Source: a virus (lineage: Duplodnaviria > Heunggongvirae > Uroviricota > Caudoviricetes). From it: DNA of 64,000 bases. The notes beneath the pieces are model-generated. The model saw only the letters and a list, made by a program, of their open reading frames with translations. It was not told the DNA's origin and made no database searches. Every line of letters begins with the position of its first letter. Position 1 is the first letter of the stretch. Where the stretch lies: positions 58,569 to 122,568 of IMG/VR virus record IMGVR_UViG_3300026549_000001. One strand, 5' to 3'. This document shows positions 562-2,340 of this stretch, one piece after another. Position numbers and translations under genes: made by a program.

Positions 562-912
562 TTAATCTTCTCCATAAATTACAAATAAACTATCTTCTGT
601 GTCAGTAGTAATACATCTTACTGGTTCGGGTTTAATTTCCTGTATAGATAATAATTTACTACCACAAAAATCGACTGTTTGAAAATACTCAAAATCATCA
701 AAGATGTTAAGAGTATCAGTTATATATTTTAGTTCGTTTATATAATAATGCCATTGGTGATTCCAAGAGCATTTTACCTTCCCATTATCAAATGTTAAAA
801 GAAACATTCTTAAAGGGAGATGGATAGGAGTAAGGTCTAATACTGTGTGGGGTTTACCATCATAACCAATAACCTTATCTCCTATTTTTACATCTCGTAG
901 CTTTTTCTTCAA
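562..912 (-). CDS. free-standing intein (Hint) middle fragment, class-3 type, no exteins
   Basis: KLRDVKIGDKVIGYDGKPHTV (post-block A), CSWNHQW (block B with His and Trp), EPVRCITTD (block F with Cys); lacks block A and the terminal (H)N of block G; TTG start with GAAGGG RBS. Confidence 0.85.
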   Translation of the reverse strand: MKKKLRDVKIGDKVIGYDGKPHTVLDLTPIHLPLRMFLLTFDNGKVKCSWNHQWHYYINELKYITDTLNIFDDFEYFQTVDFCGSKLLSIQEIKPEPVRCITTDTEDSLFVIYGED

Positions 913-936
913 GTTATATTTCCCTTCATAATTAAA

Positions 937-1209
937 TTAGGATAATCCTAATGCAATTCGTGTTATAATGATGGTATCAGCAATTCCTACTGTACCATCG
1001 CCATCCATATCAGCCCTCGCTGGCATAAAAACACCGTTGGTAATTCCCAACATAACATAACGCATTGTTGCAATAGCATCAGCAATGGTTACGGCACTAT
1101 CTCCGTTCACATCTCCCAAAAGAGGAGCGGGGAGTGTTTCGGCAAAAGCGGGAACTGCAAGAGCCATAATCATAATAGCGACTAAACTGAACACAAGTAA
1201 TTTCTTCAT
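937..1209 (-). CDS. secreted stand-alone type I dockerin protein
   Basis: Sec signal peptide (MKKLLVFSLV...PAFA) then two EF-hand-like repeats GDVNGDSAVTIAD and ADMDGDGTVGIAD. Confidence 0.85.
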   Translation of the reverse strand: MKKLLVFSLVAIMIMALAVPAFAETLPAPLLGDVNGDSAVTIADAIATMRYVMLGITNGVFMPARADMDGDGTVGIADTIIITRIALGLS

Positions 1210-1260
1210 ATAAAAAGATTCTCCTATAAAATAATTTTAGTTATAAAGGATATTCTACTG

Positions 1261-1632
1261 CTATTCTTCCAAATAATTCTTTTCTATTTCTGTCCAACAA
1301 TGTTCAAAAAAATGAATAGCCTTACCAATATCATCATCTGCCTCAATTGATGTTTCCGTATTATAGACTTCTTCACCATCATCAGGCATTAACCAATCCA
1401 TATCATATTCTTTCATATAACTATTATTATAAGCTACCTTACCACATATACGGTAAGTATCTAATAGGTATTCCCCATCATCTCCCTTGTTTTCAAAGCC
1501 ATCAACCCAAGCTAATACAACAGCCCAAGTTTTCCGACCTTGTTTAAGTATAGTTGAATAATATGTTGAAGATGTATCTCTATGTTTTTTAAGAGTATCT
1601 ATAAAATCTCTTACTTCATTATATACTATCAT
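1261..1632 (-). CDS. hypothetical protein
   Basis: 123-aa ORF in co-oriented run. Confidence 0.55.
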   Translation of the reverse strand: MIVYNEVRDFIDTLKKHRDTSSTYYSTILKQGRKTWAVVLAWVDGFENKGDDGEYLLDTYRICGKVAYNNSYMKEYDMDWLMPDDGEEVYNTETSIEADDDIGKAIHFFEHCWTEIEKNYLEE

Positions 1633-1999
1633 AATATTTCCTCTTTAAATATTCGGCAAACGCAATATCATTTTGTTCCATAAAATAACCCGACTCTAAT
1701 TGTCCCTCATACCATTTTTGAGCGGTTTCAGCCAAGTCTTTATCTACCTCTACACCATTAAAATAATCTTCCACTATATGAACTAAATGAAATACACCTA
1801 ACTGTCTACATTGTTTCAAAAAATTAAAACCGAATGCTCCTAATTTTGGAAATTTGACAATCCAAGTTTTTTCTTCTTCAGTATACATAGGATAAGATTG
1901 TCCGTTAAGCTCCCAAGTCATATTTATTACAGAATCAATAAGAGATGGATTATTTTGTTGAATAATATTTACTTCTCTCGGTGTTAAGTCTCTACTCAT
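1619..1999 (-). CDS. hypothetical protein
   Basis: 126-aa ORF overlapping neighbour by 14 nt. Confidence 0.55.
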   Translation of the reverse strand: MSRDLTPREVNIIQQNNPSLIDSVINMTWELNGQSYPMYTEEEKTWIVKFPKLGAFGFNFLKQCRQLGVFHLVHIVEDYFNGVEVDKDLAETAQKWYEGQLESGYFMEQNDIAFAEYLKRKYYDSI

Positions 2000-2001
2000 A
2001 A

Positions 2002-2340
2002 CTATTCTTCTATTTCTACCAAAGTATCAAGGCTTAAAGGATTTGACCTTAATACTGTGGGTACAATATCTGCTTTTGGTTTCTGTGTAGCTATACTTAT
2101 ATGTATACCCGCACTTCTACCTAACTGTGCTATTGATGATAAGATTGATACTATTTCATCTTTTAGCGCATCTTCTTCCTTTGCTTCGGCACTTTTCATA
2201 CCACTATGCTGTGTCAACTCTGCCAACTCGTCACAAATCACCAATAATACTTGTAACTCATCAGAATATATATAATCTACGCAGTTTGCATTAACAGGAA
2301 TCCAATCCGTACCATTAAGGCAAACTTCCACTTCTTTCAT
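2002..2340 (-). CDS. FtsK-like ATPase fragment 3 (Walker B to Q-motif) ending in a 12-aa split-intein N-tag
   Basis: LLVICDELAEL Walker B, IAQLGRSAGIHISIATQKP FtsK motif, then VLRSN|PLSLDTLVEIEE-stop; start moved to ATG 2340 (RBS AAGGTGG). Confidence 0.85.
   Translation of the reverse strand: MKEVEVCLNGTDWIPVNANCVDYIYSDELQVLLVICDELAELTQHSGMKSAEAKEEDALKDEIVSILSSIAQLGRSAGIHISIATQKPKADIVPTVLRSNPLSLDTLVEIEE
2005..2040 (-). other. 12-aa intein N-fragment (block A) PLSLDTLVEIEE
   Basis: matches the PLGLNTVIPT start of the cis intein at 14841 and the P-L-x-L-D/N-T start of class-3 inteins; followed directly by stop. Confidence 0.75.

Follow-up and report, generated by a model that had tools for sequence, protein, structure and literature searches.

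A predicted natural three-piece class-3 intein in an FtsK/TcpA-like ATPase of a bovine gut replicon

In the window analyzed here, i.e. the whole 64,000-nucleotide stretch C1:58569-122568, an FtsK-like ATPase is encoded in several pieces on the minus strand. The third of its fragments ends in a short intein tag (N-tag), a separate gene encodes an intein core without any extein, and a fourth fragment, situated beyond the window, begins with another short tag (C-tag). These parts of what we call intein 3, their neighbors and the remaining ATPase pieces are listed below.

Window 2002-2340, minus strand: ATPase fragment 3 (112 aa), with the Walker B region, an N-extein ending in RSN, and the N-tag; own ribosome site, ATG start.
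Window 2002-2040, minus strand: N-tag of 12 residues, Pro-initiated (block A), then stop, at the end of the fragment 3 gene (RSN, followed by PLSLDTLVEIEE-stop).
Window 562-912, minus strand: free-standing, extein-free intein core (116 aa) with blocks B and F; TTG start, ribosome site AAGGGA upstream.
Window 751-759, minus strand: block B His52 (B10; 759-757) and Trp54 (B12; 753-751), invariant in 20 stand-alone cores.
Window 613-615, minus strand: block F Cys100 (F4), the class-3 nucleophile, invariant in alignments A1, A2 and A6.
Genome C1:55617-56006 (L001:1049-1438), minus strand: fragment 4 (129 aa), i.e. an 8-aa C-tag, Cys+1 and the ATPase tail; found by tblastn.
Genome C1:56022-57134: endonuclease-like ORF, broken by TGA, directly before fragment 4.
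Window 937-1999, minus strand: unrelated genes between N-tag and core (126 aa, 123 aa and a 90-aa dockerin protein), outside the intein.
Window 4683-15600, minus strand: upstream ATPase pieces forming the other chain, namely fragment 1 (15600-14299), the middle piece of intein 2 (12781-12254) and fragment 2 (5153-4683).

All three intein 3 genes have their own ribosome sites and start codons. Fragment 3 likely starts at the ATG at 2340 and not at the longer TTG call at 2424, a start that it shares with the natural intein-free proteins P0138-P0141 (220-226 aa). Fragment 4 has a GTG start and its own ribosome site TAAGGAGG, and its protein begins with MGKILTSN, directly followed by Cys+1; in this tag Thr6 is G5, Ser is G6 and Asn8 is G7. 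The sequence-only reading had picked out the core by its block B Trp and block F Cys and by its stop ahead of block G, and had assigned the missing first strand to the end of fragment 3; both proposals were borne out, with His52, Trp54 and Cys100 located in the core and the 12-residue tag on fragment 3. It had also predicted a tiny C-tag gene beyond the window, and the whole genome does contain one, about 2.6-3.0 kb to the left of window base 1 and 3.1 kb beyond the core; that reading thus passed its own refuting check, the absence of such a gene from the replicon. This gene was located by tblastn of intact homologues against the whole genome, an earlier scan for the His-Asn motif having been too noisy. 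The predicted FtsK tail after the tag is there with its arginine-finger part, while the motif is of the PGMA type and not the expected GRG. Neither part of the TGA-broken endonuclease-like pseudogene had a Pfam match. Read-through of the stop codons was considered and rejected, as fragment 3 ends in a TAG with a TGA two codons further on, and an unrelated 160-aa gene follows the TAA of the core. The idea that this 160-aa gene is the usual downstream neighbor of the ATPase was not supported either; it has a distant paralog in the same window (76-558 and 24966-25454, 160 and 162 aa, 30% identity, function unassigned).

The source record comprises 250,568 bp, carries direct terminal repeats and is rated complete. 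The whole stretch is covered in bovine gut DNA and RNA runs, the habitat being judged without sequencing runs of small share. IMG/VR classifies the record as a virus; neither a large terminase nor an SPP1-type portal was found in it (no match to PF03237, PF03354 or PF05133), and Pfam identified a coupling-protein domain together with a sortase. Genes for VirB4-like, signal peptidase, large surface and NrdD proteins were also recognized in this record (G000) by inspection. The replicon may be a giant conjugative element of rumen Firmicutes rather than a phage. Among named proteins, those most closely related to the host protein are FtsK/TcpA-type proteins from plasmids of Clostridium perfringens (28% identity across 88% of the query); the ATPase, initially named FtsK, is on these grounds better called FtsK/TcpA-like. 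The dockerin gene between N-tag and core (window 937-1209) encodes a small secreted-looking protein that is little more than one dockerin domain, a hint that the host may have cellulosomes.

Three separately translated genes tile a single HINT domain, with both breaks lying in surface loops. When joined in silico, N-tag, core and C-tag (12, 116 and 8 aa) give 136 residues that align from first to last (residues 1-136) with the contiguous inteins P0020 and P0013; the gaps total eight residues in two places, all inside the core and none at the breaks. Mapped onto the modeled structure of a contiguous homologue (pLDDT 97), the N-break falls in the loop that follows the initial short strands, and the C-break in the turn of the final hairpin. 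Excision of tags and core in silico leaves a chain of 221 aa, which aligns without gaps to the intein-free P0138 over 221 of 221 residues (66.5% identity); the separately translated pieces would thus restore an intact host protein, as expected of a naturally split (fractured) gene. Pfam returned a sub-threshold Hint match alone for the core. Since the top PDB matches of its AF2 model (pLDDT 89) are the class-3 inteins 6BS8 and 6RIY (Foldseek E-values of 5e-6 to 5e-5, TM 0.74-0.76), its resemblance to inteins is not due to chance. A complex prediction of the tag-bearing fragments with the core scored 0.08 and was counted neither for nor against.

By every available defining test of sequence and modeled fold, the three-piece element classifies as a class-3 intein. 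The W-C-T triplet that defines the class (PMC7891396) is complete, with Trp54 (B12) and Cys100 (F4) on the core and Thr6 (G5) on the C-tag, which upholds the class-3, three-piece structure that had been proposed from the window. Other class-3 residues are present as well, namely His52, Asn8 and Cys+1, and the first residue is Pro1, the class needing no N-terminal nucleophile. Both helper histidines of asparagine cyclization, which are common and non-obligatory, are absent (G6 is Ser and F13 is not His); the natural split class-3 intein AceL NrdHF lacks both and splices efficiently (PMC7891396). Instead of the two fragments of an ordinary split intein, each with its extein, there are three here, the middle one extein-free.

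Scans of viral contigs with fragment 3 or the core as single proteins yielded no relatives, and alignments were therefore needed for the relative searches. At the same insertion site, relatives were found in intein-free, contiguous (144-145 aa), N-split, C-split and doubly split states, and those with N-tags carry equivalents of 12-17 aa. In the N-split loci L004, L007 and L009 an endonuclease-like ORF overlaps both fragments, and the large fragment of L004 has the same first residues as our core, to which it is 52% identical. In the C-split locus L006, an 8-aa C-tag directly follows an endonuclease-like ORF that is the reciprocal best match (46%) of the TGA-broken ORF (C1:57134-56022). Putative nuclease genes or their traces thus occur at either break, i.e. 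as a pseudogene at the C-break here and as a gene at the N-break in L004, L007 and L009, the latter being absent from the present genome. Many relatives have a group I intron two to three codons after Cys+1 (L006:11460-11790, L010:7876-8200), so that the C-tag exon of L006 comprises only about 11 codons.

Stand-alone cores are not restricted to this genome. A profile search of 1.8 billion representatives identified about 19 separate 50% clusters resembling them, some of which could be partial gene calls; the DNA was examined for L094, L095, L174, L175, L177 and G001. His52, Trp54 and Cys100 are invariant in 20 aligned stand-alone cores with 26-43% identity, while the related cores P0159, P0188 and P0222 look truncated or degenerate. 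L094 and L177 each have a core and, as a gene of its own, the C-tag, while L174 and L175 are too short to show tag genes. All three pieces occur in G001, a complete genome of 467 kb, with the core at 140 kb, the N-tag exon at 151 kb and the C-tag gene at 210 kb; the core is thus followed by the N-tag exon after 11 kb and by the C-tag after a further 59 kb. The C-extein frame of G001 is broken five codons after Cys+1 by an insert of 13-16 nt (L216:1396-1560, ~210.7 kb). This insert could reflect real decay or an error of the assembly, possibly the collapse of a group II intron. In a tree of 46 cores, most deep branches of which are weak, the stand-alone state requires 8-11 changes and a single clade is rejected (AU p 9.5e-5); the state has therefore arisen repeatedly or been reshuffled by recombination. 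This series of loci fits the fractured-gene model of Dassa et al. 2009 (PMC2677866) applied twice.

Sequence comparisons indicate that purifying selection acts on both the core and fragment 4, with dN/dS values of 0.16 for the core against strain L011 (p 2e-4) and 0.04 for fragment 4 in a close-strain comparison. C-tag codons 5-8 (Leu, Thr, Ser, Asn) have all four changed in a close strain, and only synonymously; this strain has lost the endonuclease gene, but its C-tag gene retains both ribosome site and start. Among the tags, Thr G5 and Asn G7 are conserved, and Cys+1 is present in 14 of the 14 intein-bearing C-parts (alignment A5). At the position of Cys+1, seven of the intein-free alleles carry Leu, two Thr and one Cys; as Leu thus prevails, the ATPase itself does not need this residue, and its retention points to ligation chemistry rather than mere docking.

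Very probably, then, this is a working natural three-piece class-3 mini-intein that trans-splices the two halves of the FtsK/TcpA-like ATPase chain. Following the class-3 mechanism (PMC5222942), the N-tag (12 aa) would dock into the core as its first strands and the C-tag (8 aa) as its last strand. His52 would prime the Asn-Pro bond for attack by Cys100 of the core, leaving the N-extein on the core as a thioester, from which the acyl group would pass to Cys+1 of fragment 4. Cyclization of the tag's Asn8 would free the C-tag, and an S-to-N shift would complete the 221-aa chain. At the end, the core would be chemically unchanged and by default plugged by two spent tags, i.e. it would act in single turnover. 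As to its origin, a contiguous intein may have been fractured by two separate insertions of homing-endonuclease genes, one after block A and one before block G, with the endonuclease genes decaying or being lost afterwards. Assembly of three bodies on such short tags may be inefficient, and of the engineered S1 or S11 splits only some work (PMC3620165). One caveat is that this ATPase copes with being broken between fragments 2 and 3, where no intein lies, and therefore ligation of its halves may not be essential.

It is because of this tolerated break, which occurs at another site and is already present in the family (P0138-P0141), that the main rival to trans-splicing is a cleavage-only or clamp function. 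The core would then bind the tags and perhaps trim them, by hydrolysis of the Cys100 thioester and by Asn cyclization, and the ATPase pieces would assemble non-covalently. The lack of both G6 and F13 histidines agrees with this, as do some engineered minimal-tag inteins, which either fail or undergo cleavage in place of splicing (PMC3620165). We nevertheless regard it as improbable, given that Cys+1 is kept in every aligned intein-bearing C-part where intein-free alleles mostly have Leu or Thr, that the spliced product is free of gaps against an intein-free chain, and that the tags conserve Thr G5 and Asn G7. A decayed intein, i.e. a broken gene whose pieces no longer function, could account for the broken endonuclease gene next door, for the truncated or degenerate look of some related cores and for the scattering of the pieces among unrelated genes. 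It is very improbable and largely refuted by the dN/dS values of core and fragment 4, the four adjacent tag codons with synonymous changes only, the invariant catalytic residues of about 20 divergent cores, and a C-tag gene whose ribosome site and start outlast the loss of the endonuclease gene.

As introns are common in this ATPase family, we also considered removal at the RNA level, in which self-splicing introns would excise the intervening DNA and the intein would be translated in one piece. Rfam at gathering score missed even control introns and was replaced by a motif scan with controls. The scan detects the group I introns of L006 and L010 and two in a paralogue, misses a third paralogue intron (40051-41413) and is thus not fully sensitive; it found no group I R/S motifs between fragments 2 and 4. 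In two RNA runs from one bovine gut sample, the spliced joint of that third paralogue intron (genome 40051-41413) was present, and it was absent in the DNA run. Among the joints listed in both RNA runs, which cover contigs only with rare forms dropped, none linked the core to fragment 4, and one RNA contig runs unbroken across the core-to-fragment-4 region, the N-break being covered by a loose end alone. A low-depth joint near the end of the core in run X3 contains 25 foreign letters, leads to an unrelated gene and was dismissed as noise. The contig evidence against splicing of the RNA is supportive, not final. A stronger argument is the scrambled gene order of G001, where the core precedes the N-tag exon, and relatives with two pieces have no room for a ribozyme, since their endonuclease ORF overlaps or directly adjoins the flank on either side. 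RNA splicing of the intein 3 breaks is consequently unlikely in the extreme.

Within the preferred reading, trans-splicing, a bolder sub-case, raised as a possibility in the sequence-only reading, is that the core is a true multiple-turnover transpeptidase, from which the spent tags leave so that one core joins many pairs. In its favor, the first class-3 nucleophile resides on an extein-free core and is regenerated after the reaction, both tags are very short, and cores have been maintained as genes in their own right at a large distance from their substrates (L177, G001). Against it, the literature describes inteins as acting in single turnover (PMC5222942, PMC10559147), the tags form integral strands, both of which must leave once spent, and the charges of N-tag (-4) and core N-terminus (+4) are complementary, suggesting tight binding. 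Furthermore, there is a single tag pair per core in this genome, and the TTG start is confined to this core, those of L094, L095, L177 and G001 using ATG; the weak start was accordingly rejected as a sign that the core is substoichiometric. On balance such turnover is chemically coherent, if rather doubtful. The same doubt attaches to the wider conjecture that stand-alone cores might be domesticated inteins serving as multiple-turnover ligases, which recognize tags of 12 aa and 7-8 aa and join proteins without a scar. If true, a selfish element would have given rise to a new class of natural peptide ligases.

The remainder of the ATPase is no less interrupted. Spliced in silico, the upstream chain of 381 aa aligns without gaps to residues 1-378 of the intein-free P0111 (63% identity). 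The ATPase gene also contains a second three-piece intein right after Walker A (window 14328-14299, 12781-12254 and 5153-5055), consisting of a 9-aa Ala-initiated tag, a 175-aa middle piece and a 33-aa C-piece, i.e. an S1 split plus one at the usual site; in G001 the second intein has minimal tags on both sides, with its core at 115.6 kb and its C-tag at 191 kb. Fragment 1 (window 15600-14299) also harbors a contiguous, Pro-initiated intein of 166 aa, which is related to intein 3, ends in Thr-Arg-Asn before Thr and is separated from the next intein tag by five extein residues. Because the intein-free break between fragments 2 and 3 (window 4683 / 2340) is conserved, P0138-P0141 starting at the same place, the mature ATPase probably still consists of two chains once splicing is complete. 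Just upstream of fragment 2, window 5219-7203 holds a TnpB/IS605-like gene, recognized by inspection, and a truncated endonuclease-like ORF, possibly a remnant of what split this fragment. A paralogous FtsK-like gene (L002; C1:45431-44658, 42232-41741 and 41654-41388) with several group I introns appears to carry a third three-piece intein, with a Cys-initiated tag of 22 aa, a middle piece of 163 aa and a C-piece ending in His-Asn before Ser. One intron of the paralogue is the endonuclease-containing group I-type intron at C1:40051-41413 (L013:52-1414), which Rfam misses at gathering score.

Cores and tags of this kind are mostly invisible to Pfam (one sub-threshold match), so that annotations list the genes as hypothetical and their hosts resemble pseudogenes. 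Because the core that carries the first catalytic Cys is untethered and the tags are short enough to be synthesized as peptides, turnover by an intein becomes directly testable, and a protein ligation tool with very small tags could result. Even at single turnover, the intein would represent a natural three-input ligation switch, and the approximately 20 divergent cores would be candidates for orthogonal pairs. Only if the core turns over would an analogy extend to sortase, which likewise performs tag-directed ligation via an acyl-enzyme intermediate and has a fold unrelated to the core. The archaeal Connectase (PMC7980362) would, on the same proviso, be a purely functional analog with tag-directed ligation and an acyl-enzyme intermediate, the folds again being unrelated.

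The closest structural matches of the core, i.e. the class-3 DnaB-1 inteins of M. smegmatis and M. chimaera (6BS8, 6RIX, 6RIY; TM ~0.75), are contiguous, splice in cis and are only about 22% identical to it. AceL NrdHF (PMC7891396) shares the class, the origin from a fractured gene and the lack of both helper histidines, but consists of two pieces of 98 and 48 aa, split at the usual site, with an M-C-T triplet, whereas the present intein has pieces of 12, 116 and 8 aa and the full W-C-T. In the genes described by Dassa et al. 2009 (PMC2677866), a free-standing endonuclease gene likewise splits the intein and is later lost, and the parts uncouple in the genome; there, however, each intein has one fracture, while two fractures here free an extein-free core gene. 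The breaks match the engineered atypical splits S1 (11-12 aa N-intein) and S11 (6-7 aa C-intein), which have been used singly (PMC3620165), and the present intein has both naturally. Engineered three-piece split inteins (Ssp and Rma DnaB, Npu DnaE and gp41-1; bioRxiv 10.1101/2023.01.30.526203) have the same arrangement of N, M and C on three chains with an extein-free middle, but are artificial, while the present one is natural, of class 3 and minimal in both tags. According to the same 2023 preprint, no natural intein of more than two pieces had been demonstrated. Literature searches for split, atypical and three-part inteins yielded no natural three-piece example either, within a coverage outside which most subscription journals lie. 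Judged by its sequence, the intein would work like these engineered ones, and would be categorically new only if turnover were shown. The authors of the AceL NrdHF study predicted that very short natural fragments might exist (PMC7891396); this locus and its relatives supply both these and a natural three-piece split, together with a full evolutionary series at one insertion site.
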